A stretch of DNA of 64,000 nt from Carpediemonas membranifera BICM (lineage: Eukaryota > Protista > Fornicata). Shown one piece after another: positions 15,032 through 61,684 of this stretch. Position numbers and translations under genes: made by a program. The notes below the pieces were generated by a model. That model had not been told where the DNA came from and made no database searches. It saw only the letters and a program-made list of their open reading frames with translations. The stretch lies in assembly GCA_019828565.1 (NCBI GenBank), contig JAHDYR010000067.1, positions 464,244-528,243 on the forward strand. Direction: 5' to 3'. The first letter of the stretch is position 1. The number at the start of each line of letters is the position of its first letter.

Positions 15032-15045
15032 ACGTTCTGAAGCGA

Positions 15046-28375: not shown

Positions 28376-28417
28376 ATCTGATGACTTGACGCTGGAGCGA
28401 TTAGATGTGGTGAAGAT

Positions 28418-32354: not shown

Positions 32355-32674
32355 TTGAGGGGAATTAACGTTAATGTGCCTCGCTAATGCGGAGAATGCT
32401 TTTACAGGGAAAGAAGAAGAGAAAACCCTTGTGCCAATAAATGGCTTAAACTGTATAAATGATTAGTGTGGTCTATGACCACCACACAGCTCGTCGAAGT
32501 CGTCGGCCAGGTCCCCCAGGTTCTCTCGATGGACTGTGGGGAGCTCCTGCGAGCCAGACGCGGTGTACATCTGGGCGAGCTCATGGAAGTCTGCCGGCTC
32601 AAAGAGCGCGGGCGTATCAACAGGTGTTGCCTTGTTGTGGCCAAAGTCGAGGCCCACCGCGCGAAGCGCTACGG

Positions 32675-37099: not shown

Positions 37100-37103
37100 A
37101 CGG

Positions 37104-37934
37104 TGCCATACAGGACTGCCACGGGCAGGTCGTTGACAATATAGGCGGTCAGCTCGGTCGAGGCTCGGACCGGAATGTCGAAGTATGGCTCTGAGATGAT
37201 GGGAGTGAGCTGTGCTGTGCCCACATACTCGCCGTGGACATCTCTCCAGCCGTTGACAGGGCCTGAGGCTGGTTTCACCTCGAGGGAGAGGTAGGCGGCA
37301 GCATCCGGGCGCATCAATATGGGGTACTGTTCCGCACCTGTGTCGAGTGACACGACCAGTGGTGAGCCGTTCCGCTGCGTGCGCATCACTGCGCGATATC
37401 GGTTCGTCGGAGTATCCGGTAGGCTGTCCAATAGGGGCTCGGTTGCGACTCCCGGCACGTATGACATGGGCTTATCAGCATCACGAGCCTCCCGGTTGCG
37501 TGCAATGCCAGGGAGGGCGAGATTGCGCCTCTCGGCTTCCTTCTTGACCTCGGGCATGACTGTCTTGCCTTGCTTATCGCACACTCGGTAGTGGTCGGTC
37601 AACTGCTTATTCTTCAGCTTGCTCGGATCAACGCGGAGCTGTTTGACAATGTTGCAGTCTTTCGTCGGGTGTGCGGTCAGGTGGAACGCGCACTTTCCGC
37701 CCGTCGTTCTCGGCGGGGGTGGTGCGAGTACGGGGCCCGAGCTGGGTTGTCGCTCTGGGGCCGTGTCGGACGATACTGGTCGCAGCAGCGGCTCGATACG
37801 GATCAAATCCGCTTGCAGCGAGCCGAGGGCCTCCCGTGCCTCATCTAGCATGGCGGTGACAGGCTCTGCCGCCGTGACGCGGTTGATAGAGCCCTCGCCC
37901 ACCAGATATGCTGTGGTCGTGGCGTTTGGGGAGG
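37104..37934 (-). CDS. Element A gag C-terminus and protease fragment
   Basis: CAFHLTAHPTKDC knuckle, LDTGA. In frame with 40643-41441 and 32491-32674 once B and C are removed. Confidence 0.9.
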
Positions 37935-40637
37935 TGTGGCAACAGGTTCTCTAGTCAGTGCAGTTTATGGTAAATAGAATCTCATCTTTGTCTCTTCCGT
38001 GCTGCCACAGTTATATAACTGCCAATAAGCTTTGCGGTAGTATCATGCTGGTTCGGATGGACGAAGTTCTGGCGATTCAGGAGAAAGAAAGAGGTGTGCT
38101 AGCCTTTCCGTTCAAAATTCTGCAGTATTTCGGCAGTGAGGGAGGTGATAATGCTTAACACCTAATATGCAGCGAATTCTTCCGTTGCTTGCTATGGAAT
38201 TCGCACTCCAACGCGAGTAGCGCAAGTCGGTAGCTCTGTTCATCATGGTTCCGTCGAAGAAGTGCGCCTGGGGACTATACGGCGTAAAAAACGACGTGAG
38301 ACAACACCTGGTGACGTATAATAGTAGAGCTGTGCGAAACTGACGACGCTGAATGAAGTCCGCTCCCACAACGAGTGCGAAAATCGATCGATCGCTAGCT
38401 AAGCGCAACGCGACGATTCAGGAAGACTTGCACAGAGGGGGGCGAGCTCCAGACACGAGGAGGACGGATAGCCATGATGGTGTCCCCTTGTAATGACCGA
38501 GCGAGGTAGAAAATCCCTCAATCTTTTGATTGAAGCCCGAGTGAGTGACCTAACCTCTCGAGCGAAGACTTGGGATGGCTAGAGCCATTTTGCCCCGCGA
38601 TGTTCAATTTGCCCCAGATTGATCAGCTGAGCGGACACATGTTCGTTTCAACCAAATAGCGGCTTTGCTTGCAGCTAAGTGGGATGTTCCCCTTGAAAAT
38701 GCTTAGTTTATATGCGAACAGCTGAAATTAGCTGCTATGTCCATGCTCCGACGACTTTTCGTGTGGTACTAGCGATCTTACGGACAATTTCGCTGTTTCA
38801 TGCCACGACGAGCCATTGTGCTGGTCCAGGAGCGTAATAATGCCTTGATACAACGAGTGGCTGCGTTGGCTGCTCTCTTCAAGTGATATAACCGTCGTTC
38901 CAGCGGCGTCGTTCCACGACGAGCGCCGCATCGAGCTCATCTAGCTCTCACCATTTTCCTCACCTTCCTCGCCACGCAAGCAGCAACGGGGTACCACGAC
39001 GAGGGTTCGTTCCCCCTACAGCGAGCTGACGTGTCTGAGACCATGTTCGATCGACCGAATCTTTATAGATTCGATGGCCGAATCTTCTGATATCTACGGT
39101 CTACAGAAGGAACTAAGTCATTCTAACGCATTCTAGCGTGACGAGAAGCCCTATAACAGATTTATGAGAGGTCTGACGCGACATTTGACCATTGTTGACC
39201 GCAGGTGAATTGCACCAATGATATGCCTCAAAAGGCGGGTAAGCAAGTTCATATGACATCCAGCGGTACAAGACGAGTGGTCTGCGGCGTCTGAGAGACC
39301 TGCACTGTGAAACAGGGAGGTGATTGGTCTGCTGCCCGCGCTGCCAACGACGTGGCGCGACAGCCTTTGAGGCCTTACAGCGGACGCAGGGCGAGGGTAC
39401 GAGCTGTATACGACGGTGATGTACGGGGTGGCGACCTTACTAGGTCCAGTCCGACCCACGGAGTCATTCATTTGACGGGTTGGCAGGTTGACCTTCGCCT
39501 TTATGACTTGACTTTTATGCTCATTCGATGGAGCCTTGGGACTGACGTATCGTGCTTGTGAGGTGGCCCAAGTCGGTCTGCCTTCTGCCAGTCTACCCAA
39601 CGGTGTCCATGTGCTGAGTCGAGGTTGGTGCTCCAAGCTCCGGCATATGCTAAGCCGGGACAGTGGCGAGCCTGAATCAGTGTGATGAGCTGTACAAATC
39701 AATCTCAGTGTCTATCGACCAAGACGTGACCTGAACCCGGAACGTGCGGAGGTCGACGGTGCTCCTTTAGCACACTTGGTCTGACGTGAAGGACACTTCT
39801 TCTTATGCGGGGTGGACGACGGTGACGAGCTGTGTTAGAACGTCTATCGCGATGACTTATATCGGTGATGGAGCTGGTCTCTGGTGGGTTGAGCGGCTAT
39901 GCTTGGCCTTGATCAGTATTCACGTCCAGGTCGGCGTGACTCCTATCCTTCCCTTTTGTTCGTAGATGATAAGTTGCCTTGAAGTGGGTGAGCGTAGGCC
40001 CAACGCCGGTCAAAACGACAGAGTACCGTGGATGGCTGGAAGCTTTCTTTCTGCTCGAAGTTACTGCCTTGAAGCGGCTGATCTTGGAGGCCATAAGAAG
40101 TCAGGCGGAGACTCGAGTTAACGAACAACATGAGGGGCAACCCCCACTCTCTCCTTGAAGGGACCCTGAACCTACTGGTTATTCCCTTCTGATGCGTGGT
40201 AACAGGCCACATGTCGCCGCAACATGTAGTTTCGGTGATGATGCCCTCGACATGATGTCGTGGTGTGCAGAGTTTTCTCTTCTGGAGTTCTCTGATATGA
40301 TGAGAACAGCTGTGTGCCAGCGGTCTCAGAACAACGCACCTTCTTTCCGGTCCTCGGCCGCGACCTTCCGGTCCGTGGGGGCAGGGTGTGCGGTCTTCTG
40401 CTCTTAAGTCGAGTCAGCCTCGAGCCGTTTCAGTTGTTCCTCGCCTGCCGTTTGCGCTGTTGTGCTTGGTACGGTCGGTATCTCTGCCATCTTTTCTGCA
40501 CTTCCCTGTTCTCCTTCTTCCGTTGTCCTGTCCTCGCCTTTGGCTCCGGGCCGTGGGGGCAGTGTGGCAACAGGTTCTCTAGTCAGTGCAGTTTATGGTA
40601 AATAGAATCTCATCTTTGTCTCTTCCGTGCTGCCACA
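37935..40637 (+). mobile_element. Non-autonomous LTR element B (2703 bp) nested in A
   Basis: Identical 75-bp TGTGGCA...TGCCACA LTRs at 37935-38009 and 40563-40637; 5-bp TSD GGAGG; GGGGGCAG before the 3' LTR; no gag/pol ORF inside. Confidence 0.92.
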
Positions 40638-43694: not shown

Positions 43695-45252
43695 ATGAGC
43701 AGCACTAGTTCCTCTCCAACGTGCATCAAAGACACACTTACCTCCGCATATCGCTCCTCGGTCGCCATAACGGCCTCCATCTCTGGGGACATCCCATCCT
43801 TGATCCAGTGCGCCTACTCCAGGCACTTCAAGAAGCCTCCTCGCCACGCTCTCAGAGATCCCCCCTCTCGAACCAACCGCGCAAGCCCTCCTCGACCGCG
43901 CCCGCTCGATCCTCACCAGCGGCCCCCCGCTGTCAATGAACGTTGAGCTCGCGGATGGCGAGGAGCTCCCGGTCGCCATGCACACGCTGAACCAGGGCGC
44001 GGTGTGGGCGTGTCTGCTGGGTGGCGGGGCCAACCCCGACCTCGAGGACAGGGTGCTGCAAGAGGCCCAAGTGCTGGGGTCACGTGGTACCACGATTTAC
44101 GACAAGATCCGCAAGGTCATCGCCCCCGAGGCCAAGTGCCTCTGGTTCCTCTGCCGCAAGTTCTTCTTCTCGCTGAACGTCGCCGAGAAGGACGGCGAGA
44201 GCTATCAGCACGCTTGGTCCTACATATTTTATCACCACCGCATGTACATGGACCGACTCTTCATGCTCGGCACTGCCAATCACACCGCCTTCACCAGGGC
44301 CAGGATGCCCAGGGCCCTCGAGGTCTACAGCAACATATGGACCCACATCGCCAGGACGCCCAAGGGCATGTGGGGCTGGGGGTATAGCGGTCATGGCCAG
44401 CTGGGGTTCGAGTCATTTGAGTTCAACGACCCGACCCGCCTTACCTTCCCCGCCTGCGCCGAGGTCGCCGAGCTCGAGACCAGCCTGCCCCCTTGGGAGA
44501 AGCACAGGATGGTGACTGATGTGTTGATGAAGGGAGATCAGACGTTCATTCTCACCCCAGTCGGCACTGTCATGGCTGGCGCTGCTTCGGTGCGCTTCGT
44601 CGGCCCAGTCGAGGAGGAGAACGAGTACCTCTTCCACCCAGTCGCTGTGCCCGCTGGCTTTGTCCCAGATCACATCATTCATGTGGGAAGTTTATTTATC
44701 GCGACTGTCATCCTCTCCATGGGCGATCGGCAGATGATCAGCGGAGACAACGATTATGGTTAGCTGGGAATTGGGCACGAGAATGAGATGACTGGCTTCG
44801 AGGTGCTGCCCTTCAGGGTCGACCGGATCATTTCTTCTGCACTTGATTTCACCGAGGAATACGGTGGCCGCCAGCTGCTGTTCGCTGGCGAAGTTCCCGA
44901 TCATATCGCCCAGTCGGGCCTGCTGCCTGGGTACAGAAAGAACGACAACTGCCTCACACCCACCCCGCTCCGGTTCCCAGAGAGGGTCAAGGGGTTCTGG
45001 TGTGACGATTATCAGATCGTCTGGGTGACCGAGGGTGCCACCCACTTCTTCCACCATGGGAAGCTTACCGTGGTTCCTATTGAGGCGACAGCGTTCAGTG
45101 AAGACCTGTACATTCGCTTCTGCGACTCAACCGGCCAGTGGTTCAGGGTGGTGGGTGAGTCAGATGGGGTGGCTGAGCTGGTCGAGTGCGAGGCGCCCAG
45201 AAGACCGAGAGACATCATTCCCGTCGATTTCGACCCAAGCCCTCAATCATAA
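43695..45252 (+). pseudogene. RCC1-like repeat family gene, copy 4 (in-frame TAG at 44761-44763)
   Basis: Same family; the CAG of NDYGQLG reads TAG here. Confidence 0.75.
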
Positions 45253-47205
45253 ACGTTCTGAAGCGACAGTGAGCTCCTTGCAGTTGAAATGTCCGGTATG
45301 GGAAGTTGACGAAACCAACCGGAAAAAGGCCAAAAGCTGGCAATCGGGATTTATCGGATCTCATTGAAAGCTATTCGAGCTCGAAGCGAGCGACGGTGCC
45401 CCGCGGCGCCAGCATCCACCAAATGGTAATTTCAGGACCAAGAGTTCGTCTGCTCTGGGGCACGAGAGCAGAAATGGGAAGTTTTCTCCTAACCCACTAG
45501 CCATAGGGCACATTGGGGAAGCAAATTGCTCCCCGGAGGAGATCGCCCGTTGCGAAGCAGGTTAGCGCCAGAGCGGGCCGGCAGAGGACAACTGGCTGCT
45601 CCAGGTGAGGTGCGCACCACCTCACCTGGAGCCCACTCCCTGCCCTGTATACCTCGCCGTGCGCCAAGCTATGTCGAGCAACAGATGATCGTCCTCGTGT
45701 GCCCAAAAATGCACAGAGGCAAAAACCACCCAAAAGGGAATAAGTTAGCCTCGGTAGGAAAGCGTTGACAGAATACACAGTACTCTAACAACAAACAAAA
45801 CCTACCGCCCATGCTCCTGGGACCCACAAGGGGACCAGACGCAACTAAACGCTCCTCGCACAAACCCACAAGGGAAATCAACGCGAACAAGCGTACTGCG
45901 CCACCTTTATGATTGAAACCCCTACCGTAACCGGTACCCGCAGTAGGCCCCAGAGGCACTGCGACACGATTGCCTCAGACAACTTAACTGGGGCCATATG
46001 GCAAAGTAACCCGAGAGCACCGGGACCGGCGGCCAATAGGCTCTCACTGGGAGGCCACTGGGCCACACTACTCCGGCGCCCGTGCTCTCATGCCGCCCAA
46101 GACCGGGCTTGTGGACGTCATCGCCACGAGAGCCGGGATCGCCGCCCGCCGCCGGCATAGGCAACAGGGCCACCACAACAGGCCCCCAGTACACCAGCCA
46201 TACCGGACAACAGACCGGGAGCGCTGAGGGCCCCGTCCACAGCCCCACAAGAAACGCCCAGCCGAAGCCAAAAGGCATAAACCATCACGGTGTTTACCAG
46301 GACTCACAACCTCTTGGGAGTGACGCGACCCAGGAAGGAAACAACCGGGCTGCGACCACAAGATACAGGACGAGGGGCGTGAATGGCAACCAGCTGGTGC
46401 AGCCGGGCGTCTATGCGAGCACGAAGGCGCTTATAGACCCGCATTTGGCCCCTCAGCTCAGCGTCGAAACCCCGAGCCGACTTAGACTCGTGGGGACTCA
46501 GGTCCTCGTCACGGTAATTCTGAGCCAGGTAGGAAAAGGCAGCGGCACGCTCCCGCCACCGGCTGGCCAGGACGTCCACCTGGGCAAAATCGTCAGCTAT
46601 GGTCCGCAGGAAATGCGCCTCCCAACCCCGAGGAGTCGCCGGGCCAGGAGTCGGGGACTCCCGAGAAGGAGCGGTGAAGCCCCTGCCGCCACAAGGCAAG
46701 GGACTACCCTGGGGCCCGGAGGGGAATATGGGATCCCCCGTCGGAGTGCGAAGAGGGCCCTGCTTCCCGGGAAAGAGGCGGCGCCCCCGAAATCGGAGTC
46801 CAGGCCGTACTCGGGCCAAGGACTCGATAGGGATCGGAGTGCATAACCCCTGGTAATGCACCTCCCCCTCTGGGGACCGCTGGGCAGCGGAGGCGCCGGC
46901 CGAATGGCCAGGAGGAGGCGTGAAGGTGGAAGGAGAGATGGAACGGACGCATGGGGAATAAGGGACAGCAGCCCCGTGTGGGGCGATGCTCCCTGTCCCT
47001 GCAATAAGGTTCCCTTTTGGGTTTTCGCCAGACATGTTTTGTGTGGAAACAAGGTCCGCAACAAACCTCGCCCCTGAACCATCTGCCCTGAGGAAGGGAA
47101 AGGAGCCATACAAGACCAGGACATCGCTGGCTGGCGCCCCTTGGAACCTCCACCAAACCTCCTCAAGCCCCTCCAAGAAGCTGGCAAAAGTGCACTTCCC
47201 GCCTT

Positions 47206-50200
47206 TTGCCACTCCAAATGGAAACAGGGGAATATCCCAACAGGGACATGCCAGATAGGGAAGAAAGCATGATTTATGGCTTATTCGCCCTTAAGGCTGC
47301 ACCCAGAAGGGATCTCAGGAAAACCAGAAGGGAAAAAGCAAATACGTCCATTATCCAGCTCGGCAACGCGATAGGATACGACAAGATTGTAGACCCAGAA
47401 CAGGGAAGCTTTACAGCAAAGGAAGGCCCAGGGGAGCTCCGGAAAAGCCGGGCCAAGAAGCTGTTTGCATCACTTCCCCTCCTGAGACGGTACACAAAAG
47501 CCGCCCAACAGCCATACTGGCTATTCATTGAAGGGAACCGGCTGGACCTAGAGCAGGCGGAGACACTAAGCCGGCTTCGCCCAGGGTCCCCCAAATTTGT
47601 GTTCTACCCCAGAGTCCAGGCGGACTACTCCAAGTACGTAGCACATCCCCACCGGACGAGCCAGACGGCACCAGCTAGTGAGCAACACACCCCATCACTT
47701 CTCCCCGTGGAGGAGGGCCTTGATCTCGGCCGAATCCATAACCGGGACTTTTCGAGACCACGCCACACAATGACCTCGAACAGCTCCCAAAGCGTCCCAG
47801 ACGCCTTGGATTGCGCAAACACCACCCCAAATGGGATCAAGGAGTCGTTAACGCCACTGGGCAAGCAACTGGCCACACCGGACGAATGGGACTGCATCAG
47901 AGCCTCAGCAGATGCGGCTATTCCCACAAGGGACGTTGCCATGGTCTTCACCAGAGATGACGCAACGGACTTCACTGCCCGAACGGGAAAGGTCGCAAGG
48001 ACGCTCCTCCTAGAGCTCGTGGCAACATCGCTGCAAGCTGCAGGACATTCTTCGATCTCAGGCAACGGCATCCAGACCAAGTACGGGATGGAGGCTGCAA
48101 TGTGGCTCCTCCATGCCGCCGGACACGCCATCTCCGCGGGAGCTGCAGCCAGAGGGCTCCCCCTCACTAGGACGCGAAAACAAGAAGCTCTGGGCCGACC
48201 TAGGCCGGGAACTAGCCAAAGGGCAAGGCTACCACGCCCCTCACCCCCCGGAGGGAGGTTTCCGCAGACCAGACGGCACGCCCATCCAGATCTGGACCCA
48301 GGGCCCCGTCGAGGAGATCCTCATCTACAGCAGAACCGAGGGTGTGATGAGGCCAGTCTTCCCACCCCCACCCCTGGAAGAAGAGCCTTCGGCAGCAGAG
48401 GCAGACCTGAGGGAGGAGGTCAGAGACCTCATCCAACGGTGGTCAGTCCCCGGCTTCCCCGAACTCTGGTCGGCATGGGATAAGACCAGGCGTCTCTGGC
48501 CCCCACCCGCGAGGATTGCCCGCGAACTGGTGTCTGCCTCCTTTCTGACGCGCAACATCACTAACTACTGGCTCACAACGGGGCAGACCCAAGTTATAGA
48601 GCCCGTACGGGACGGGGCATCTCATGGAGCCCTGGGTACTAACGAAGAAGAAACCCCCCTGGGCCCGAGCGGCAGCAGGACTTCCGGCCCTGATGACACA
48701 CCCACCACGCCAAACAAGGGCACATGCGGGCCCAGCATGGGAGCTAGCCCGCCTCGTTCCAATATCACCCAACGAGCCAACACCACCAGGCAGTTGATCG
48801 CTATGGTGGACTTTGAGGAAGGAAGAGCCAGATCCAACCAAGGAGACGAGGCCATCATTTGCGAAGGGGCGGCACTGATTTTCGACCCAGCTAACGAGCA
48901 AATCCTCTACTACATGCACGGGATGCTTGGGGAAGACATCACAGTGGATGCCCTGGACCAATGTCTGTGGGCCACGCACTACATCCATGGCTGCCCACCA
49001 GCTACGTTTGTCGACGTCACCACGGGCAAAGCCCCCAAGGGATACGAAGCAGACTTCCCCCACGCCAAGCGATGGTGCACCGAGATGGCTACAGAGCTGA
49101 AGAGACTGGAAGACGACTCGGGGCCACAGAAGACCCACGTCCACATCGTGGCTAAGGGAGTCGAGGCTGAGAGAAGCATCCTGACCAGTGAGAAGTTCGT
49201 CCCAGACGGGAACCTCCGCACCTGGCTAAGCTTACGCCTCATGGATGAAACTGACCTCAACACGATCTTCCCCAACATCCTCGACACGCTGACCTGGTTC
49301 TACCCCAATAGTGGGGAGAAGAGCCTCACCGGCCTCCCCTCCCGACCCCAGTCCGAACTGGGCCGGACCTGGACCAGAAGGTACCAACAGCGCCCGGAGG
49401 CAAAATTGGTGTGCCCCTATCACAAGCACGCACCCCACCACTGCCACTGCGCCCTAGCAGATGTCTCCATATTCTACGCCAGACTAGCAACAGCGTTCTG
49501 GATGAGAGACAACCCAGGCTGGGACTGGGGGCAGGTAGAAGCCCACCTCACAGCCCTAGGAAGCATGCTCATGGGCAGGGAGTCGCCGTACCATGATGAA
49601 TACAAGGACCTGGCGACCAAAGTCAACGCCAGACACGGCCTCGGCACCGTGGCGGCCGGTCGCCTAACCCCATTGTCCCAACAAGTCAACCTCTTTGGCA
49701 CCAAGAACCCCAAACGGGGCCAGATTATCATGACCAACTGGGAGGAAAACGATTTCAGCTCCGGAAAGGGTATCACCAGAGCCCTGGAAGGAACAGCCGT
49801 GATCATCGGAAACCCAGAATCGCTCGCGAGAGTAGGCGAACCAGCGCGACCCATCCTCCTGGAAATCCACTCGGAGTGGAACGGGCGCCGCCGCGCTGTC
49901 CAAGACGGTTTCCCTTGGGCGAACCTGAGGGGGGAGCCCACGGAAATAGACGCGGAAAAGATGCTTACTCTAGACGTCAGCGACACCAAAACGATGACCC
50001 TATCCCAAGCGGCGTCTTTGATGCCCGTCCACAAATTCGACATAGCTGGAGGCCACATGGGCAGAGAAGCCAGGAAGAAGATCTTCAACTACTTCACGGA
50101 GGTCCCAGCCGACGATCGAGAACTCCTGGCCAACATGTGTGTCGACCCGGAGACAGGCTCCATCAACTTCCTCCCCTCGTTCCTCCCCCGGGACTGGGGT

Positions 50201-51054
50201 ATCACGGATGAACCAGCAGAAAGAGGGAAGAGGCGAGTGGGCACCTTGAGGAGCGCCTCCTGGATAGGCAAACTCGCCCTGGCGGGCTCAGGCGTGGAAC
50301 ACCCAAAAGGGGGGAAGCCATGGGACACGCTGAACTGTGTTTTCCCGGAAGGCGCCAGCACTAACGCCAAGAACAGACTGAGGACCGAGAGGAAGCAGGC
50401 GCTTCGAACAAAGGTGAGACGAAGGGCTACTGAACTCGCCAAGATGCTCCACAGGAGGACGGAGGTCTACCTGCCGAATGGCGGCATAGGGGGCCTATAT
50501 GGCCCTCCACGCGAGCAAATTGTCACTGAACAACCGCAAAGTAGCAGGACAGAGCGAACAGAGCCCGGGCCCCCTCCAACTAAGAGCTGTGCCCCCCCAT
50601 ACCCCCAACCCATCAGCCAAGACCCGCCAGGTCAGACAGGTGGACCAAGAGGACCTGCAGCCCAAAAAGAGCACGACAGGAGGACACCGACCTGGGCAGA
50701 GGCATAGCGGCCCTGCTGGACCAAGCCATGGCCCGGCGAGAAGCAGAGGTCAGACAACAGCTGGAAGAAGCTGCAGCCAGAACCATCAACGAGCTCAAGG
50801 CCAAAAGCCAGGAGCTGGAGGAAGAACGGGAAGCCCGGAGAGCAGCCCAAGCTGCGTTGGACGAGATGCGGAAGGACCTCAGGAAGACAACGGAGAAGTG
50901 CTCGTCTCTAACCGAAGAGAACGAGGACTTACTCAGCCGCGCGGCCCGACTCTCGGCAACCAACGAAGCCCTCAGCTTCACCCTAGCAGCCAAGATGGAT
51001 AACTTCAGGTCTGACCTGAGAAGGAAGAGAGGCGAGGAGAAGGAAGGAGAGTAG
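47206..51054 (+). CDS. LINE ORF1 region (overlapping ORFs 47206-48483, 48113-50707, 50728-51054) with a DEDDh/zinc exonuclease-like domain and a C-terminal coiled coil
   Basis: VDFEEG, CEGAA, HYIHG, AKGVEAE, CPYH...HCALAD; terminal coiled coil. The ORFs are probably one protein broken by frameshifts near 48160 and 50665. True start unresolved. Confidence 0.6.
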
Positions 51055-51627
51055 AAACAATCATAAGTAAGAGGTGCAGAGGGTAGTGTGATATAAGTCT
51101 GAGCTAAAAGTGTATATACTGAACCAGCATGTATGGCCAGGCTGTGACTAGTAGGGCCTTAAAGTCCAAATGGACACCGGCGAACCATTCCGGCGGGAGC
51201 AAAAATGCAACACATTCTTTTTTCAACAAACCCCTGTGCCCCACAGGGGCCGGGGGCAGGGTTACCAAAAGGTAAAAAGAGCCCTGCCTGTCCGGCAGGC
51301 TGTAACTCCAGCCTTGGGAGGGGCAACAACCACTGTCGCTCCCACCTAAGCTCGTTAGGTAATGGTCCTGCCATGCGGCGAGGAAGGAAGCTAAGCGGAG
51401 ACCGGCAGCAATGCCGACAAGCATCGTGAGGCCCCGACTGTGAAAGGGAATGGTATGCCCTAGGCCGGGAACTAAGGGAATACAGGCACAAGCCTGCCCA
51501 AAAGGAAACGACTGCTCGGTTAGAGGCCTCAGCAACCCACCAAAAGGTACGCCCAAAAGGGAATGTCTACAAAGAGCAGATTAGTGCGCGCAGGGTAACT
51601 CCCGCAGTTTATGTCAGAACAACCTGA

Positions 51628-54600
51628 ATGAGAATAATATCGCTAAACAGCGAAGGGCACCTAGCGGGCGCAAACGATTACAGCGGATCCATAGCTTTAT
51701 CCATCCGCAAGAGGATAAGGACTGATGCGATCCTCCTCCAGGAAACCAAGCGGTACGGTAATACCACCATCCCTTGCTGGGTAGATCTCCAGTACGCCTG
51801 TGCAGGAGAGGTCAAGCCATTAGAGGCAACGCGCAAGCGACCCACAAAGGGACTGGCCACACTGATTAGCCCGCACTCCAAAGCGGAATGGGACGTAGGC
51901 GTGTCCGACGGGACGAACCCACGAATCCAAGTAAGCATCCTCAAAGCATCGAGGGCCACGGCAGTCATCAATATCTACGCTCCCGATAGTGGATGTGCAC
52001 GACCCGATGTGCCCTTAACCTGCGGAATTCGTAAAACAGTCTTTATCATATTTCTGGGCCCTAGCACGGCACAGTATCGATACTGCCGATTCAAATGAAG
52101 ACTCTTACAATTGACACCCCGTTCGCCGTCGAGAGAGCACTCCAGGAGTACCTCTCGGCGATGCCCCACGAGAAGAATCCAATTTCGTTCTTTAGGGCAT
52201 TGTCCCCCGAGACAACAGAAAAACTTCGCGCCCAGTGGCGCCCAACCACTCTTTTTGACACTTTCGAGGACCTACAACGAACCGTTCTGTCCGATTCCGA
52301 TGCTCGCCGCGCGGCGAACACAAGCTCTGCCAGTACTGCGGCACGAGCCCGTACAACGAAGACCGACAACCTCACCGCCATCTGGGTAGAGGAGGTACAG
52401 AAGACCATAAGAAAAGCCACGTTCGCCGCCTGTAGCGAGTGTGCAGCTAAGCACAAGGACCCCACCCTGACAGCAATGACCCGGGAGTGCCTTGAAGCTC
52501 AACATCCCCAGATACTGACTGACTGCGGCAAGAAGGCCCGCGACTTCTTCACCCAGCTGACCGACGACCACGACATCGCAAACGTCGAGACAGTCGCACG
52601 GCCTGGCAACCTGACCGGCCCGGACGGCGAAGACGTCTCGGTGGCGTTCGTGTACATGCCCCCAGTGCCCGAGGAGACCAAGCCCGCCCCCTCCTCGGCG
52701 GCTTGGCCAGTCTTCGATGGCGGGGACGTCTACGCTTTCCTCGCCAAGGAGGCGACCTCCATCGCCCCCTACCTCGCATATACCCTCTTGACTAGTACGG
52801 ACCCGGGCGCAAGAGCCAAGCTCCTCAAGGCAAAGCTCGACAACATCACGCTATACGGTCCGGAGCCCCGGCACCGAACGGCCGTCGAGAAGGCACGTAA
52901 GCTCATAAGCGCCCTCAACCCAGACATCAAGGACGTCCCCACCATCTCCGCAAAACTGCTCGAGCGGATCATTCGGGACTTCGCCACTAGAGGTTTCTCC
53001 AAAGAAGCCGAGGATGTATACGAAGAAGAGATTGAGGACTACTCCGACAAGATCAGCGAACTTCTCGACAAACTACGCGACTTGGATGTTGATCACGACG
53101 AGAACATCATTATCCCATGGCGTGCCTTCAGACTCGCCAGCCCACAAGCCGACAACAACGAGCAGGCGTCGGGCACTTCAGGCAGGAAGCCGCTCGCTCG
53201 CAGGCTCGATGGTCGCGATCCGTTCCAGCAGTTCAGGGACAAGACCAAGTTCCGCATGCCTCCTTCCCACACGAGATACTGCACACAGCATGGCTGGAAC
53301 CCGCACCACGAGACGAAGGACTGCAGGTTCCTCATCAGACGGGAGGCTTACAAGGCCCAAGAACGCCAGCCACAGACCGAGAAGCGTCAGGAACGCAGAC
53401 CCGAAGAGCGGCAAAAGCAGCCCGGCAACCGCGCACGCCCTGTGGCGCCCACCAGTCACCAACAGTCGGATCGCCGGGCCGGCCGCATGGACCTCCGCCC
53501 CTCGTCTACCCTGAAGAACCCCCGCCGCGTCGATGAGGTGTTTGACGCGGATGAAGCGTCTCATTCGGAGTTGGAGAACGAAGTCTACGAGATCGAGGAC
53601 ATCATACTCGACAAGGACCCGGTGAAGGTCCCGGCTGTTATCAACGGCCAGCACATGAACGTCAAGTTCGACATCGGCGCTTGCACGTCGGTCATATCAG
53701 CCCCTGCCCTCGCAGCGATCCCCGACGTGACCCTGATACCGACCTCAGTCGAACTTCTCGGCGCTGGGGACGAGATCATCTCCACTGGCAAAGCCGCCAA
53801 GGTCTCGCTGACCCTCCCCAGTGTCGACGGAAAGACCGTGACCACCACTGCATTGCTCATGGTCACGAAGGGCCAGAGGAAGAAGGTCCTCATTGGACGC
53901 GATTTGCTCCGCCGCCTCGGCTTCCTGCTGAACGACCGGCTACTAATACCGTCCGCTGACCCGATCGATGACGACGACGGCCTGGGACAGCACCCCTACC
54001 TCGACTCGACAACAGAAGAAGTCGACCCCGAGGAAGAGTGGCGCAAGGTTAAGCTGCCGACCGAAGAGAACCCGGAGCTGGCTGCCTGGCTGACCGACTT
54101 CCTTCGCGAGCGCAAGGCCGTGTTTGGCCCTCTACCTCCGGATGGCAGCAGGATGCCGCCACACGAGATCGTCGTCGATCCAAGCCGCCCTACACCCAGG
54201 GCCCGACCCAGGCCGTTGAAGGGTGACCCGGGAAACTCAGCCCTCGCGGAGATCGACAAGATGCTCAACCAGGGCGTGATCCGAGAGAGTCAAAGTCCGC
54301 ACTCTAGCCCGCACGTCATGGCAAAGAAGAAGAGCGGCGAAGACCGCTTCTGCATCGCTTACAACGTCTTGAACAACGCCACCATCGACGACCTGTACCC
54401 CACGCCGGACATCCGATCGTTTGTACACGAGGCGAGCGGATGCTCCGTGTTCGCGGCGCTCGACCTGCGCAGCGGATACTGGCAGCAGAACATGGCAACC
54501 GATAGCATCCCGCTCACCGCATTCACCGTCCCGGGCGGGCATTACGAGTTCTTACGTACACCATTCGGGCTGAAGAACGCCCCAGCAAAGTTCCAGCGAG

Positions 54601-57600
54601 CCATGGACGAGATGCTCGCTGGTATCGACGGTTCGAGAGCCTATATCGACGATATCTTTGCGTACGCCCGCTCCATTCAGGATTTCAAGTCGACCCTCAC
54701 CCAGATCTTCGACCAGTTGGAAGCTTACGATATCAAACTCCGCGCCGACAAGTGTGCCATTGGCATGAAGGAGGTTGAAGTCTGTGGGTTTATAGTCAAC
54801 GAGTCTGGCAGGTCGGTTTCCCCCTCACGTATCGCAGCCATCCAGGACCTCACACCCCCAACGACGACAACGGAGCTGCGCCGCACGCTAGGCAAGTTCA
54901 ACTATCTGTCAAACTATATCCCACACCTCGCCCACGCATCAGCCCCGCTCAACGCCCTCCTAAAGGGATCGCCGCAGAAGTCGGCCCCCCTCGATTGGAC
55001 TGCCACTGAGGACGAAGCATTCGCCCGTATGAAGACCCTAGTAGCCGAGCACACCGCCCTCGCGCTCCCAGACCTGAGTGCAAAGTGGACTCTCGAGACC
55101 GACGCATCGTCGACCGCCATCGGTGGTGTACTGTGGCAGGGCGAGGGTGACGAGAAGGTCCCACTCGCCTTCTACAGCAAGACCCTCGACGAGACCCAGC
55201 AACGGTGGTCCACGGTGGAACAGGAGCTTTTCGCCATTGTCTATTGTGTAACGCGACCAGAGTTTTCCCCCCTCTTCAAGCTGAAGCCGTTCGAGCTTCG
55301 CACGGACCATCGTAATCTGATATGGCTACTCAGGAAGACAGACGAGGACGGCACTAAGAAACTGACACGATGGCGACTCACCATGACAGAGTATCCGTAT
55401 AACGTCACACACATAGCTGGAGCGCAGAACCTCGTAGCCGACGCACTGTCGCGGCCATCATCTCAGCGCAAGAACGAGGTGCGCCGCTCGATCGACCACG
55501 TCACCACGACGCGCCAAGAGCAGATCACCAGGGCGCACGCCGGTGCACAGGGCCACGTCGGCCCAGACCAGACCATCGCCAATCTGAAGCAGTCCGGTGT
55601 CACGTGGCCAGGCATGTCGGATGACGTCCGCGCGACCTTACGCCAGTGTCCAATCTGTCGCAAGACAAAGCCAGCCCGCAAGGAGCCGATCAAGTGGCAC
55701 TCTACTCAGCGCATCCGCCCATTCGAGACGGTGCAGGTGGACACCATTGGCCCTTTGCCCGAGAGAGACGGTCTCAAGTACGTCATCACGGTGGTGGACG
55801 TGTTCTCGAAGTTCACCATATTGAAGCCCACACGGTCAACGAGCGCAGCCGAGGCAGCAGCCGCATTGCTGGAGATCTGGGCGACTTTCGGCGTCCCGGC
55901 CGAGCTCCAGTCTGACCAAGGTACACAGTTCAGGAATGCCCTAGTCGAGGAGATGAACGAGCGACTGAGCCTCAAGCACCGGTTCAGTACGGCATATCAT
56001 CCGGCCAGCAACGGCGTAGTCGAACGCCTGAATGGTACCGTCATGAGACGCTTAAGAGCGCTCCTGCTGGACGCCCGCGACGACAACTGGCCCGCATACC
56101 TGCCCATCGCCCAGCACGTTATCAACGCCACCCGCCACTCCACCACAGGCCTCAGCCCCTTCGAACTATTGTTCGGACGCAAGTCAACCATGCTGCGCGT
56201 CGCGCCCGACGCCCTGACCAACGCAACCCAGATGCTCGAGCCGGGCTCAGTCGAAGCCGACGACATCGTCCGCTTCCAGGCCCACGTCACGTCGCTCCAA
56301 CAACTTGCCGCGATCAAGGTCAAAGCCTACGAGGTAAACAAGGCTGCAGGCTCCTCGGACAGCACACGGGCCTGGGAGAACGAAACCTACGTCCTGCTGA
56401 GATACCCGGGCAAGCCGCCGACCAAGCTACTCCCGCCTCTGCGCGGACCGCTCCGCATGGAGGGGAAGGGCGATCACCCCAACACCTACAAGGTGATGGA
56501 TCTCGTGTCGAAGTGCGTCGCCACAGTCCACGCAGACCGACTCGTCACATTCCACGCCGACGGCCTCACGGAGAAGGAGCTCGAGGAAATTGCCGCCTAC
56601 GAGCAAGATGAACAACCCGTGGAGGCAGTCGTAGGCCACCGTAAGAAGAAGAACGGCTCTCTGGAGCTACTGATCCGTTGGGAAGGCCTCACCCCCGACG
56701 AGGACTCATACATCCCCTATAATCGCTACTACGACCAGCTCGAGGCTATCGACAGTTATCTCGAGCTCAATCCTGGTCTCAAGCCGATGTTTGAGAGTGC
56801 TAAGAAGAAGTTCCGCAGGAGCGGTCGCCGTTAGTCGTGCGACACGCATTGGGAGGGAAGTGTGCCCTTAACCTGCGGAATTCGTAAAACAGTCTTTATC
56901 ATATTTCTGGGCCCTAGCACGGCACACCGAGATTGAGGAGTTCGACCGGATGCTAGAGCAAACCGTCGCGAACTATGAGGGGTGTGACATCATCATCATC
57001 GGGGACTGGAACAGGAGGCCAGGGAAACTCAGGCAAGCAACTGCGATGACCCTCCAGCGATGGAACCTCACCCCAATAGCACCAACTGCACCGACGTACG
57101 GGACTAACTCCCGAACGTCCACAATAGACTATGCAGCGGTAACAGGGGGTATCCAAAACCCGGTTGTTAGGGTAATAGACAAGACCACAATCGGGCACTG
57201 GGGGTCGGCACACAAAGCCATAGAGCTCACCTGGGATAGCAACCCGACAGGGAAACCAGAGATATCAAAGAGACTGGAAATCCCACGGATCGATACGTGG
57301 CTGGTCAAACCCAGGAGAACAGGGCCCAAGCTAGAAGAGTGGCCACCACTAGACAGCAAAATACCAGTGGACGAGATGGAGACTCTCATAAGGAAATGGT
57401 TGTCCACCGGGTTTGCTACCTCCAGAAGGCACCCATTCGCTGTAGAAAACCAGGAACGTATCCCTAGTGAGGTATGGGAACGGCTGGCCAAAGCCTCCAC
57501 CTGGAGCAAAACCGCCGCCAAAGATATCAAAAAGTCCCTCAACGGAGCACTGAGCAGATCATGGAGGACCTTCCAACATGACTGGAATGAGCAGGTTGAG

Positions 57601-59922
57601 GTTGGATCCCGTGATGGGTACAAAACGACAAAAAGGATCCTCGCAAACCAAGTGTTCTGCTTCTGGAACGAGAAGCAGCACGCCGGTCTCCCGGTGATGC
57701 TGAAGGCTGGAAACAAGATTCTAGCAAGGCAGAGGGAGATTGCAGACTCCCTCCAGGAACAGTACGCGAAGGTAAGCTCCGGGAAGGAACCCACCTGGGA
57801 ACCCACCTGGGAAACCGAGCCGGAAACGGACATGGAGGACCATCCGCCATCGCTTGAAGAAGTGACAGCGGCGGTCAAGTCCATAAGGAAGTCCTCGGCC
57901 GGAGGCCCGGACGGGATTATTGGAGATTGTCTGAGGGACCTCCCCGAGTCAGCGTACGAGGCAATCACAGTCCTGCTCGCGAAAGTATACGACAGCGGGA
58001 CCATGCCAACCACATGGAAGTATGCAGCGGTGTCGCCTATCCACAAGGTTGGGAAGGACAAGCTCACGCCCAGCTCGTACAGACCGATCTCCCTCACCCC
58101 CCTCCTATACAGAGCCTACGGGAGGATACTGAAATGGCGCCTCAGGCCGACGGTGGAGAAGTTCATCCCCAGAGAGCAAGTTGGGTTCATGAAAGGGAAA
58201 ACTGTAGTGGATCACATAGCCCTCCTAGCCCAACTCCACCAGTCCGGAAACCGTACCAGCGTCCTACTTGACATAGCAAAAGCATATGATACGGTCCCAA
58301 GGGACCTGCTGGTGAACAAGTTGACGCTCATGGGGGTACACCCAAGACTGACGAGGGCCATCCGAAATACACTTACAGAAACGTACATCTCGGTACGAGG
58401 GGCAAGCACATGGTCCAGAACAAACATGGGGGTCAAGCAAGGATGTGTGGTGGCCCCCACTCTGTTCATTCTCTTCACAGCTAACTGGCTAAGCCAGGCG
58501 GCACTGTACCTCCGGCATAGAGAGATCCCGGACCCCTGCCTCCCTCCAACGGACGATATGCCCCCAAACTGCCTCATTGCAATGTTTGTAGATGATACAA
58601 GCATCTCAGCCGAGACCCCGCAGCTCGCCGAAGAAGGCACAGACGCAGTGGTCAGGGTAATTGAAGCCCATGGACTCCAGACCAGCCCAGGCAAAAGTGT
58701 GGTGATAAGTACCGACGTAACTGCAGCGGTCAGCATCCAAGGAACTCCCACACTGGCGTCAGACTCAGCAAGGTATCTGGGACTCTGGCTAGCCAGCGGA
58801 AAGAATCCGTTGGCAGCATGCATCAAAATGAAGACGTCACAATCCCGGAAATACCTAGCCCTGGCAAGGAGAGCAGGGTGGACCAAAGGATCCACCCCGG
58901 CCGCCACCTCGGAATCCATCCTCAGAACCTTCCTCTGGACCAAGATCGAGTTCGGGATCGAGATCTGGGGCCAAGCGCCAGGGGGAAGAGCCATCTGGAA
59001 CAACTGGCGCGGCCTAATGGCAGGCACAGGACCAGGGGGAGGAGGAGCCGCCCGTGTACTAATGGGATGGATGTGCTGGGAGGCAGATATGGGGCAGAGA
59101 GCGGTGAGGCTCTATGAGTCTGCGCACGACCTGGACCGTCCGACCCCCCTAGGGAATCTGGACTGGGCGACAGCGGAGAGAGGATCGGTCTTACATCGCC
59201 TCTACCAATGGCGACGGAGCGTCCTCCAGGGCACACAGGAGGAGATGCCCGCCAGGGAAAGAGCAAAGAGGGGAGGCTGGACCCTCACAGCAGAAGAACT
59301 ACTGCACACCGGGAGCCGAACGGCCAAAGGGGTGGCAACAGTACTAGCCCCGGAAGTCATCCTCAGCATGCAGCAAGGGAAGAGACCCAAGAAACCAGGA
59401 ATGATCAAGGGTGAGATGATAACCAGACGGGAAGTCAAGAGAGTAATCATGACTGCATCCAACACACTCCCCTCCCCCAGCAACAGTGGCAGAAGCAGAG
59501 CCATACTTGGGAGCGCGATCGGCCAGCCCCAGGCCCTCCTGAGCAGGATCAAGCGGTGTTGCCCCCTATGTACCCTGGACTCAGAAGGTGACACCATTAC
59601 TCGCCTGTACACTGTCACCAGAACCGCGGCGGAAACCACCAAAATCCTCTCAGAATGGGCATACAACCAGCCCCTGGGAACACAAAGCCACATCATCTGC
59701 CAATGCAAGGCGGTAGAACGCCCAGAAGGATGGAATGACATCCTGGCGGAGGCGCATCTACGCACACAGTACCACGCCCTAAGGCAAGGGCAGGAGGCGG
59801 AGTGGTACAACTCAAGGCCAATCCTGGAAATGCTCTGGCTCCTCCGCAGCGAGGACCATACCGTCAGAGAGGGACTGCAGAACGGCAGACGTGCCCTTCT
59901 GAACCTCCGGAAAGACGGGTAA
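51628..59922 (+). CDS. LINE ORF2 (APE endonuclease + RT + Cys/His C-terminus, ~1123 aa), interrupted by element E
   Basis: MRIISLN, LLQET, INIYAP|...GDWN, TIDY, SAHKAI; GPDGI, YRPISL, QVGF, LDIAKAYDTV, GVKQG, FVDD, YLG. Removing 52008-56930 restores YAPDSGCARPEIEEFDRMLEQ in frame. Confidence 0.95.
52008..56926 (+). mobile_element. Ty3/gypsy chromovirus E (4919 bp) nested in the LINE endonuclease domain
   Basis: Identical 66-bp TGTGCC...GGCACA LTRs at 52008-52073 and 56861-56926; 4-bp TSD CCGA; PPT GGGAGGGAAG. Confidence 0.97.
52095..56834 (+). CDS. Element E single-ORF Gag-Pol polyprotein (1579 aa)
   Basis: CTQHGWNPHHETKDC knuckle, FDIGA protease motif, LDLRSGYWQ, YIDD, TDAS, D-D-E, chromodomain LIRWEGLTPDEDSY. 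Confidence 0.96.
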   Translation: MKTLTIDTPFAVERALQEYLSAMPHEKNPISFFRALSPETTEKLRAQWRPTTLFDTFEDLQRTVLSDSDARRAANTSSASTAARARTTKTDNLTAIWVEEVQKTIRKATFAACSECAAKHKDPTLTAMTRECLEAQHPQILTDCGKKARDFFTQLTDDHDIANVETVARPGNLTGPDGEDVSVAFVYMPPVPEETKPAPSSAAWPVFDGGDVYAFLAKEATSIAPYLAYTLLTSTDPGARAKLLKAKLDNITLYGPEPRHRTAVEKARKLISALNPDIKDVPTISAKLLERIIRDFATRGFSKEAEDVYEEEIEDYSDKISELLDKLRDLDVDHDENIIIPWRAFRLASPQADNNEQASGTSGRKPLARRLDGRDPFQQFRDKTKFRMPPSHTRYCTQHGWNPHHETKDCRFLIRREAYKAQERQPQTEKRQERRPEERQKQPGNRARPVAPTSHQQSDRRAGRMDLRPSSTLKNPRRVDEVFDADEASHSELENEVYEIEDIILDKDPVKVPAVINGQHMNVKFDIGACTSVISAPALAAIPDVTLIPTSVELLGAGDEIISTGKAAKVSLTLPSVDGKTVTTTALLMVTKGQRKKVLIGRDLLRRLGFLLNDRLLIPSADPIDDDDGLGQHPYLDSTTEEVDPEEEWRKVKLPTEENPELAAWLTDFLRERKAVFGPLPPDGSRMPPHEIVVDPSRPTPRARPRPLKGDPGNSALAEIDKMLNQGVIRESQSPHSSPHVMAKKKSGEDRFCIAYNVLNNATIDDLYPTPDIRSFVHEASGCSVFAALDLRSGYWQQNMATDSIPLTAFTVPGGHYEFLRTPFGLKNAPAKFQRAMDEMLAGIDGSRAYIDDIFAYARSIQDFKSTLTQIFDQLEAYDIKLRADKCAIGMKEVEVCGFIVNESGRSVSPSRIAAIQDLTPPTTTTELRRTLGKFNYLSNYIPHLAHASAPLNALLKGSPQKSAPLDWTATEDEAFARMKTLVAEHTALALPDLSAKWTLETDASSTAIGGVLWQGEGDEKVPLAFYSKTLDETQQRWSTVEQELFAIVYCVTRPEFSPLFKLKPFELRTDHRNLIWLLRKTDEDGTKKLTRWRLTMTEYPYNVTHIAGAQNLVADALSRPSSQRKNEVRRSIDHVTTTRQEQITRAHAGAQGHVGPDQTIANLKQSGVTWPGMSDDVRATLRQCPICRKTKPARKEPIKWHSTQRIRPFETVQVDTIGPLPERDGLKYVITVVDVFSKFTILKPTRSTSAAEAAAALLEIWATFGVPAELQSDQGTQFRNALVEEMNERLSLKHRFSTAYHPASNGVVERLNGTVMRRLRALLLDARDDNWPAYLPIAQHVINATRHSTTGLSPFELLFGRKSTMLRVAPDALTNATQMLEPGSVEADDIVRFQAHVTSLQQLAAIKVKAYEVNKAAGSSDSTRAWENETYVLLRYPGKPPTKLLPPLRGPLRMEGKGDHPNTYKVMDLVSKCVATVHADRLVTFHADGLTEKELEEIAAYEQDEQPVEAVVGHRKKKNGSLELLIRWEGLTPDEDSYIPYNRYYDQLEAIDSYLELNPGLKPMFESAKKKFRRSGRR

Positions 59923-60941
59923 GTACACCATCCCAGAATCCTATGACCTCTGGGACCAGGGTCAAACTGGGACCCAACCCCCGCCTCAACCGAAGCGGAG
60001 CGCTCCTGGGATCAGCGGGGGACGCAAGCCCACGTATCCCGGTAGCACCCAGCCGCGGAAGGGGGACTCAACCCGAACACTAATCTCGCTAACACACAAA
60101 CGCTCACCCATACTGGGAACGTAGACAACATTCAGCCGGCAGAACCGGCACACTCTTCACACGTATAAGAAATAACCCAGAGCCATAGGGCGGGGCACGT
60201 ATGCACATGTATACACGTACGTGCGAGGTATCGGGGCGCAGCAGCCAAACAGGAGGGTAACCATAAGGCAACAATACCACCTGGGCGGCACCTGGACCAA
60301 AACAGAGCTGCGCCGAACGGCCCGGCACCCAAAACTGGGAACCAGCCGGAAGCTAGGAAGAAGCCCTATAGGGAACAAATCCTTGAGGAGGGGATCCATG
60401 CCGGAACGGAAAGTGTGGAAGAGCCCGAACGCAGCCGTGAATCATATAGCTACCCAGCGATGATCGGTGGGTTTCATAACTGGCCCAATTGCGTGGTACG
60501 GCAAACGCCAAGCCCGAAACCGCTTCGGCGGGTGCCTGAAAAATTGCAAACTGGGTCGAATGGTATGGAGAACATATCCCTGAGAGGAGCCCTGTAGGGG
60601 AAACCGAGCAGAAGGCCCCGGTGGCGGGTGTGCAGGGCAAGGCCTTGCGGGTGCCAGGCAGAACGGGGGCCCGAAGGACCCCCAAGAGTAAGACCTGGGT
60701 TATCCCGACTTTGGGGGTATCGGGCCAGCCAGTTGATAGGTCAACATGCAAGGGACTACCCAGCCTTACCAGCTGGACCCTGACGGTGATGGTGCTAACG
60801 CCCCCAACGTAGTATCAGGCTCGCTCACGAAGGGAAGTCAACACGCTAAGGCGTTCCCGGGGACATGGGGTGGTGCAAACTGGTAATTCCCTGATTTACA
60901 CAGGTGTACAGGATACGTTAAATTTCTTTCTTTCTTTCTTT

Positions 60942-61684
60942 CAGTGAGCTCCTTGCATGTCTCAGGCAGGACGCTGTCCTCGCATGACCAGAGAAGGTTG
61001 AGCGACCAAGGAGATGCTGCAGCTCAGGGCAGACTGTCGGCCAGAGGCCCCGGGCGGTGTCAGTCGCGCGAAACCGGCCGCGCACTTTTGCAGCTTTTTT
61101 CACGCAAAAAAGTCAGAGGGCCGAAGCGCCGCGAACTGAGCGTCTTGCTCGTTCTCATGCTTCGGCGCTCGCTAATGCTTCTGCCTTCAGCCCCTGCATG
61201 GGCTGCGCGGCGAGGCACTTAGCGAAACGCACGTGAACTCCACGGCTGCGAATGCCTTAACGCATCGGGGCTACTCAGACACACGGTATACGCCATCTTT
61301 CAAACAACATCAACACGACGTCGGAAGCCCGTGCCAGGGCGCGCGAGCGCTCGGGAAGGTCTGAGTTCGACAGTGAGCTGCGAGAGGCAGTCGGCACGAA
61401 AGCGCCGCTGCAGGCACTAGAAAGCACCGCCGCTTGCTCGTTGACAGATGAGGCCCCGGCCGATGCTTAGAGCTCGCGGCGCTGGAAGCCTGCAGAAGTA
61501 TCTATCAGTCAAATGCGCGGGGCTGCTGGGCTCTCCCAGTAGAAACACAATTCAGACTACTCTCCGACGTCATCGCTAACCAACATCATCGCACCTCTAA
61601 ATGCCGCCTGCCGTTGTTGCCCAGGAGAATGGGTCGCGCGAGAGCACACGCGAGGCCAGACACCGCTGCTTCATGCCAGACCAC
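60942..61684 (+). repeat. RNase P RNA-containing repeat unit, copy 4
   Basis: Near-identical to 15046-15785. Confidence 0.95.
61317..61571 (+). ncRNA. RPR1: Nuclear RNase P RNA, copy 4
   Basis: All conserved regions present; the P2 3' strand GCGCGGG keeps pairing through a G-U wobble. Confidence 0.93.

Follow-up and report, generated by a model that had tools for sequence, protein, structure and literature searches.

Introduction

Many viruses encode their own suppressors of RNA silencing, but for LINEs such suppressors are, to our knowledge, scarcely documented. Maelstrom (MAEL) helps to silence elements of this kind, and we take Trypanosoma brucei RIF4 (TbRIF4) to be a further MAEL member. 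MAEL has been reported in animals and a few protists, and the accessible part of that account does not mention transposons as carriers (PMC2628886). The metazoan MAELs have lost catalysis and bind RNA; in Bombyx MAEL the zinc ligands are E137 (on β2), C290, H293 and C302, with R306 at the last catalytic position, and EhMael, which has both the DEDD and the ECHC residues, is an active exoribonuclease on ssRNA with Mg or Mn (PMC4408791). The available text of a further source describes the ECHC site in MAEL and the arenavirus nucleoprotein (NP) and in no other protein (PMC7968707). TbRIF4 prefers dsRNA, turns siRNA duplexes into single strands and acts in the RNAi pathway in which ingi and SLACS siRNAs accumulate, in a report that cites the MAEL paper (PMC3359990), and Lassa NP is a dsRNA-specific nuclease that digests dsRNA and needs a Gly directly after the Exo I Glu (PMC3429428).

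Retroelement-borne DnaQ-like nucleases are already known, since ORF3 of the Juno/Vesta LTR elements and of the Athena/Terminon elements in bdelloids encodes a DEDDy-like exonuclease with a DEED set and putative activity, for which a role in 3′-end processing has been proposed; Vesta2 and Vesta5 additionally carry a Cys-His-Cys motif (PMC5408684). No report of a MAEL-type or DEDD domain in a non-LTR ORF1 was found in a literature search conducted mostly outside subscription journals and outside Repbase, and the accessible portions of PMC3564120 and bioRxiv 10.64898/2026.05.21.726589 hold nothing on a MAEL-type domain in LINE ORF1. A search of the literature, supplementary files included, likewise returned nothing on RNAi or LINEs in Carpediemonas.

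Here, we describe a domain in a 64,000-nucleotide stretch of Carpediemonas membranifera BICM contig JAHDYR010000067.1 (hereafter the window) that we predict to be a 3′–5′ exoribonuclease of the Maelstrom type, with its catalytic set complete (DEDDh plus ECHC zinc), in ORF1 of an APE-RT LINE.

Results

The LINE insertion and its parts

The LINE is bounded by two copies of a 16-mer and is interrupted by a second retrotransposon. Its parts are as follows (window positions).

45267..45282, + strand: target-site duplication (TSD), 5′ copy, 16 bp; the 16-mer is present once at the empty paralogous site, 15046–15061
45283..60941, + strand: whole LINE insertion, 15,659 bp, or about 10.7 kb without the nested Gypsy
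45283..45680, + strand: structured LINE 5′ leader, z = −4.07 for RNA folding; one hairpin lies at 45598–45632
46040..46846, + strand: possible additional ORF near the 5′ end, 268 codons between stops, weakly supported; its codon signal is modest, though no other frame scores better in 46183–46783
51628..52007, + strand: 5′ part of ORF2, with which the APE endonuclease begins; by itself it matches nothing in Pfam
52008..56926, + strand: nested Gypsy (chromodomain) LTR retrotransposon with a 4-bp duplication and an intact 1,589-codon ORF
56931..59922, + strand: 3′ part of ORF2, with the remaining APE and the non-LTR reverse transcriptase (RT)
60923..60941, + strand: (TTTC)n 3′ tail, preceded by a 3′ UTR of about 1 kb
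60942..60957, + strand: target-site duplication, 3′ copy, 16 bp, the same 16-mer as at 45267–45282

The host block 14779–15604 is paralogous to both flanks of the LINE with a 99.6% match and contains the 16-mer a single time, and is therefore read as the empty site. The features of an APE-type LINE are all present (an APE-RT ORF2, a TSD of variable length, a simple-repeat tail and no LTRs). The 3′ end is the microsatellite (TTTC)n, not poly(A), and the last 200 nt show no unusual RNA structure (z = +1.08). At the opposite end, none of 100 shuffles folds as well as the 5′ leader, which could act as a ribozyme, promoter or translation element; an Rfam search of 45200–61000, leader included, gave no match. 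The ORF at 46040–46846, which has no Pfam match, is possibly an extra LINE ORF upstream of ORF1. In total, 6.3 kb lie 5′ of ORF2 in the LINE, an unusually long region.

The 5′ part of ORF2 carries what we take to be APE motifs. Once the Gypsy insertion is discounted, ORF2 stays open over 1,123 codons, and its Pfam matches are RVT_1 (3.6e-32) and, below the cut-off, Exo_endo_phos_2 (0.0016), the latter being sub-threshold because the insertion splits the domain. Its best sequence match in the PDB is LINE-1 ORF2p (1.6e-16), and no RNase H was detected in it by Pfam. The Gypsy element, inserted in the APE domain, has identical and very short LTRs (66 bp, 52008–52073 and 56861–56926) and an intact ORF in the order protease-RT-RNase H-integrase-chromodomain. 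Both insertions look recent.

Several features of the surrounding DNA were also observed. The target 16-mer (12652–12667, 15046–15061 and 45267–45282) is part of a multi-copy host repeat that sits shortly 3′ of the members of a GQLG-repeat gene family, which we take to be RCC1-like, and one paralogous host block ends four bases from the LINE target site. A cluster of further Gypsy gag/pol-like ORFs, on both strands and in several cases split over frames, occupies 23742–37950; the repeat pairs 26447/32375, 32674/36969 and 37921/40549 may be their LTRs. At 15951–20222, two in-frame ORFs separated by a single stop (17421–17423) read like what is presumably a bacterial-type acyl-CoA dehydratase activator, possibly reflecting lateral transfer, an intron or an assembly error.

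Layout of ORF1

The coding frame of ORF1 shifts twice 5′ of ORF2, giving three pieces of which A and C share a frame.

47092..48483, + strand: piece A; first ATG at 47218, homology to the relative P0001 over 47848–48156
48014..50707, + strand: piece B, made up of the linker, the MAEL-type domain and, 3′ of it, a conserved region that extends to about FLPRDWG
50584..51054, + strand: piece C, a predicted coiled coil; only sub-threshold coiled-coil families in Pfam

As P0001 aligns with A over 47848–48156 and then with B from 48272 as a single protein, A and B are parts of one gene. The assignment of piece C to ORF1 rests on its position, codon score and composition, and it has no significant BLAST match to the relative P0004. 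When scored for codon use, with three other ORFs in the window as the training set, the frame of piece B is favored throughout 48283–50383; the GC content at third codon positions in the domain is 0.73, and the strand and A-rich skew of the ORF1 region agree with those of ORF2. Read as one gene from the ATG at 47218 or 47770, ORF1 would encode about 1,100–1,280 aa. Searches of ORF1 outside the domain turned up neither an RRM nor a zinc knuckle.

Each of the two frame-junction zones contains a five-base homopolymer, and paralogous host genes in the window are also broken by single-base gaps. Programmed frameshifting was considered and judged less likely than indels: inspection of the two junctions by eye showed no canonical slippery heptamer in the required frame. 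The breaks may be assembly errors or real decay. The assembly was built from Nanopore and Illumina reads, with repeats masked before gene calling (PMC8516963). Exact database look-ups of six ORFs of the element found none of them, one query being uninformative as it began a codon past the Met. With its ORF1 frame breaks and the Gypsy element in ORF2, this LINE copy is likely dead.

Motifs and key residues of the predicted nuclease domain

The initial annotation had placed a DEDDh exonuclease, similar to Maelstrom and arenavirus NP, within the TSD-bounded element on the basis of six motifs; all six do lie between the 16-mers, in the single frame of ORF 48014–50707 (+), where they span 48803–49465. 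The domain, its motifs and its key residues (numbered as in the structural model) are listed below.

48788..49510, + strand: predicted MAEL-type DEDDh exonuclease domain (model residues 5–245)
48803–48823, + strand: MVDFEEG
48809..48817, + strand: Exo I Asp and Glu, D12 and E14; D in 9/10 and E in 10/10 covering relatives
48854–48883, + strand: IICEGAALIF
48863..48865, + strand: predicted zinc ligand Glu, E30, on strand β2 (residues 27–37); 10/10 relatives
48974–48991, + strand: THYIHG
49151–49171, + strand: AKGVEAE
49169..49171, + strand: Exo II position, Glu not Asp, E132, in the helix after β4; 8/8 relatives
49412–49423, + strand: CPYH
49412..49462, + strand: C213-x2-H216...H224-C225-x3-D229, three predicted zinc ligands plus the Exo III His and Asp; each 8/8
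49439–49465, + strand: HCHCALADV

A scan of all six frames of the window for the joint motif pattern gave a single match, and none of 20,000 ORF shuffles contained it; as the pattern was derived from this same sequence, conservation in relatives is the better test. The claim that AKGVEAE supplies Exo II holds for the position, which falls on its second Glu, but not for the expected residue, so that the catalytic set is DEED rather than DEDD; D/E at Exo II occurs in nidoviral ExoN (PMC7968707). Only seven residues separate H216 from H224, forming a short zinc loop. The residue after the Exo I Glu is a Glu in the window and a Gly in 3/10 relatives. H48 is kept in 9/10 relatives and H71 in 3/10; these may be the two further His of the EHHCHC MAEL signature (PMC2628886).

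Relatives and residue conservation

A sequence search of 1.84 billion representatives returned 10 proteins at E up to 0.001, and cluster members together with a profile search added three, giving 13 relatives. Six of these are diverged C. membranifera hypothetical proteins, several of them truncated; the other seven are on contigs of 2.9–12.2 kb. Identity to most relatives is 23–35%. Five of those seven are 1,129–1,250 aa long; in them an N-terminal region and a low-complexity linker precede the domain, which is followed by another region and, close to the end, by a coiled-coil-like stretch. Homology flanks the domain on both sides, reaching 50203 for P0004, and the motif F[IL]P[RK][DE]WG, about 240 residues past the domain, is common to the window and P0003, P0004, P0006/P0012, P0009 and P0011. 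The relatives thus share a long ORF1-like layout, as judged on proteins only, and the linkage of the domain to an RT is seen for this one copy.

The residue counts were made over 11 relatives, leaving out P0005 and P0012 as near duplicates. Eight of the nine catalytic and zinc residues are unchanged in every relative that covers them, the exception being D12, which is a Tyr in P0002. The proposed E/C/H/C zinc site stood up well, as a predicted site: E30, C213, H216 and C225 are invariant wherever covered. Among eight complete domains (the window's included, which is 25–33% identical to the others), 24 of 220 ungapped columns are invariant, and these 24 include eight of the nine key residues; invariance in domains so diverged points to selection for catalysis and not for binding alone. 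The tree of the eight domains has no outgroup and has long branches.

No homologue emerged from 545 candidates in a search among proteins of 137–438 aa, and no domain locus was found in viral contigs or in prokaryote genomes. The one locus obtained from 22 pattern matches in metagenome contigs (L001) was rejected as a chance 8-residue word in an unrelated short ORF. Separately, P0009 is a C. membranifera gene model in which the first half of the domain and FLPKDWG are joined to unrelated sequence; it is likely what is left of a decayed LINE, mistaken for a host gene in the annotation.

Predicted fold

AlphaFold2 run on a 12-sequence alignment gave a model with a mean pLDDT of 78.9 and a pTM of 0.78, in which the elements follow the DnaQ order (β1-β2-β3-αA-β4-αB-β5-αC); the single-sequence model (pLDDT 37) was unusable and its Foldseek result meaningless. 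Against 48,161 PDB representatives, the best match was Bombyx MAEL at Z 13.1 (rmsd 3.6 over 191 aligned residues), followed by Drosophila MAEL at 12.9, RNase T at 12.8 and a PIWI-bound MAEL at 12.6, so that MAEL chains rank 1, 2 and 4, with the top four tied within 1 Z in this wide search. A second structural comparison again placed Bombyx MAEL (5af0_C) first, at Z 14.4 (rmsd 3.6, 186 aligned), with RNase T at 13.0. Trimming enzymes of the RNase T, ERI1 and RNase AS type follow MAEL in the ranking, and the top fold matches are all DEDD nucleases, bearing out the DEDDh core that had been proposed from the motifs. In Foldseek, the top matches are DEDDh enzymes and MAEL is 50th. In a viral structure library, the matches are DEDDh-type exonucleases wherever they carry names. 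The suggested likeness to arenavirus NP fared less well than that to Maelstrom: Lassa NP (Z 9.2) and LCMV NP (Z 9.0) match more weakly, the Lassa features needed for dsRNA are missing (see below), and yet their identities to the domain (22% and 20%) are the highest among the fold matches.

The ESM Atlas search is independent of the AlphaFold model. For the window domain it returned mostly arthropod clusters without a name (0.93–0.94), with Maelstrom at 0.86, just under the recognition threshold and a lead only; for P0004 it returned Rv2179c-like, RNase_T and arenavirus NP clusters at 0.92. Among the feature matches of the window domain, 27 of 30 were clusters without a name, the best three being 156–252 aa long and two of them mostly arthropod; such clusters may represent more mobile-element-borne DEDDh/zinc nucleases. 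By sequence, the domain matched nothing in Pfam or PHROGs, none of 11 aligned domains matched PF13017 at E up to 10, and PDB sequence searches with the single domain and with profiles found no MAEL. As no sequence method ties it to MAEL, the domain is classed here as MAEL-type by its predicted fold and zinc site and not as a member of PF13017.

Discussion

RNA is the likely substrate of the domain, as EhMael, TbRIF4 and Lassa NP all act on RNA. The reading that we favor, tentatively, is that the LINE uses its MAEL-type domain to destroy silencing RNA aimed at the LINE itself. It is favored because the characterized enzymes with DEDD and ECHC residues are RNases tied to silencing or to dsRNA sensing, because MAEL is the best fold match and the catalytic and zinc residues are conserved, and because the ESM Atlas search returned DEDDh, Maelstrom and arenavirus NP clusters. 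ORF1 protein is normally abundant and coats LINE RNA. An intact ORF1 protein, with its N-terminal domain, low-complexity linker, nuclease, conserved region and coiled coil, would oligomerize and coat the LINE RNA, placing many nuclease sites on a particle that travels with the transcript; these sites would chew the 3′ ends of antisense RNA or small-RNA duplexes, and the loss of those RNAs would starve any RNAi of the host. The model has its parallel in arenavirus NP, an RNA coat joined to an exonuclease. Where a protein coats the ssRNA that encodes it, a built-in nuclease would presumably be tolerated most easily if duplexes were the RNAs attacked.

Several observations count against counter-silencing. 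The glycine that Lassa NP needs for dsRNA is absent (Glu in the window, Gly in 3/10 relatives) and there is no room for the basic arm; the activity of EhMael was shown on single-stranded RNA; RNase T is in a near-tie with MAEL (12.8 against 13.1), which Foldseek ranks only 50th; and the linkage to an RT comes from one copy. In addition, newly sequenced diplomonads are reported to be without Dicer and Argonaute (PMC11437800).

The absent glycine also favors the rival that survives best, in which the domain is an enzyme of the element's own cycle that trims the 3′ end of the transcript to (TTTC)n ahead of target-primed reverse transcription or, once that step is over, clears RNA or 3′ flaps in place of the RNase H that ORF2 lacks. 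The microsatellite end of the LINE, the failure to detect RNase H in ORF2, the fact that trimming enzymes of the RNase T, ERI1 and RNase AS type come after MAEL by fold and the 3′-end role proposed for the bdelloid DEDDy ORFs (PMC5408684) all fit such a role. However, most LINEs manage without such a domain, few copies of a processing enzyme are needed and yet it is found in the usually high-copy ORF1 rather than in ORF2, and the last 200 nt have no unusual structure to stop an exonuclease; we consider this explanation rather unlikely. If it were true, the domain would constitute a new enzymatic step in LINE retrotransposition.

An improbable alternative is a binding or decoy module like metazoan Maelstrom, which with little catalysis would package LINE RNA or compete for Argonaute complexes with a MAEL- or RIF4-like protein of the host. 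The best fold matches are indeed the inactive, RNA-binding metazoan MAELs (PMC4408791), ORF1 has no other recognizable RRM or zinc knuckle and one relative has Tyr for the first Asp, but, that one substitution aside, the five catalytic positions are kept across 23–35% identity, whereas binding-only MAELs lose them (PMC4408791). Very improbable is a host gene or fragment caught by this one insertion (by 5′ transduction or as a chimera) with no role in the LINE, as the unusual length before ORF2 and the broken ORF of this copy might suggest, because five full-length relatives share the layout with its C-terminal coiled-coil-like region, homology continues past the domain on both sides, the six diverged and often truncated C. 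membranifera paralogues form the pattern of a transposon family and not of a single host gene, and strand and A-rich skew are as in ORF2. The binding or decoy and passenger readings both fit the conservation poorly.

Counter-silencing, if true, would directly exemplify how a transposon can take over its host's own weapon. A wider proposal, which we advance with more doubt, is that this ORF1 is a host silencing nuclease turned into a built-in silencing suppressor, the retrotransposon counterpart of arenavirus NP, and that such LINEs form an old, diversified mobile reservoir of active MAEL nucleases, possibly a route between hosts and RNA viruses. A MAEL-type LINE domain represents a new architecture for ORF1 and a definite enzyme that can be assayed. 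It also adds to protist MAEL and arenavirus NP a third branch along which the DEDD plus ECHC family can be traced.

Comparison with known systems

The LINE domain has in common with Maelstrom (Bombyx 5af0/9nhc, Drosophila 4ybg; PF13017) the DnaQ fold, the Glu on β2 and the C-x2-H-x8-C arrangement, and with EhMael (EHI_192630) the kept catalytic residues. The spacing of C213, H216, C225 and D229 equals that of C290, H293, C302 and R306 in Bombyx MAEL (C-x2-H-x8-C-x3-D), and the structural alignment, which closes by pairing 248 with 325, sets D229 on R306 if ungapped. Unlike Maelstrom, the domain lies inside ORF1, has no HMG box, has Glu at Exo II and is only 10% identical to 5af0. T. brucei RIF4, a protist DEDDh exonuclease that acts on small-RNA duplexes in a retroposon-siRNA pathway (PMC3359990), is likened to it by description and not by sequence, and is a host factor needed for silencing, whereas the LINE domain is element-borne.

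Among mobile elements, the bdelloid elements share a retroelement-borne, DnaQ-like 3′–5′ exonuclease with a DEED set, but theirs is DEDDy (RNase D-like) and located in a separate ORF3 of LTR or Penelope-like elements, where here a DEDDh MAEL-type domain is part of LINE ORF1. The CR1, L2 and RTEX LINEs also have a captured enzyme domain in ORF1, beside a coiled coil (PMC5408684); that enzyme is an SGNH esterase, and the one described here is a predicted nuclease. Arenavirus NP (Lassa 3r3l, LCMV 4o6h; PF17290) combines DEDDh and ECHC residues in a nuclease fused to an RNA-coating protein, and the alignment ends set D12, E14, H224 and D229 on Lassa D389, E391, H528 and D533 if ungapped; in comparison, the LINE domain has a DEED set, no equivalent of Gly392 and no long basic arm before the Exo III His, for which its short zinc loop leaves no room.
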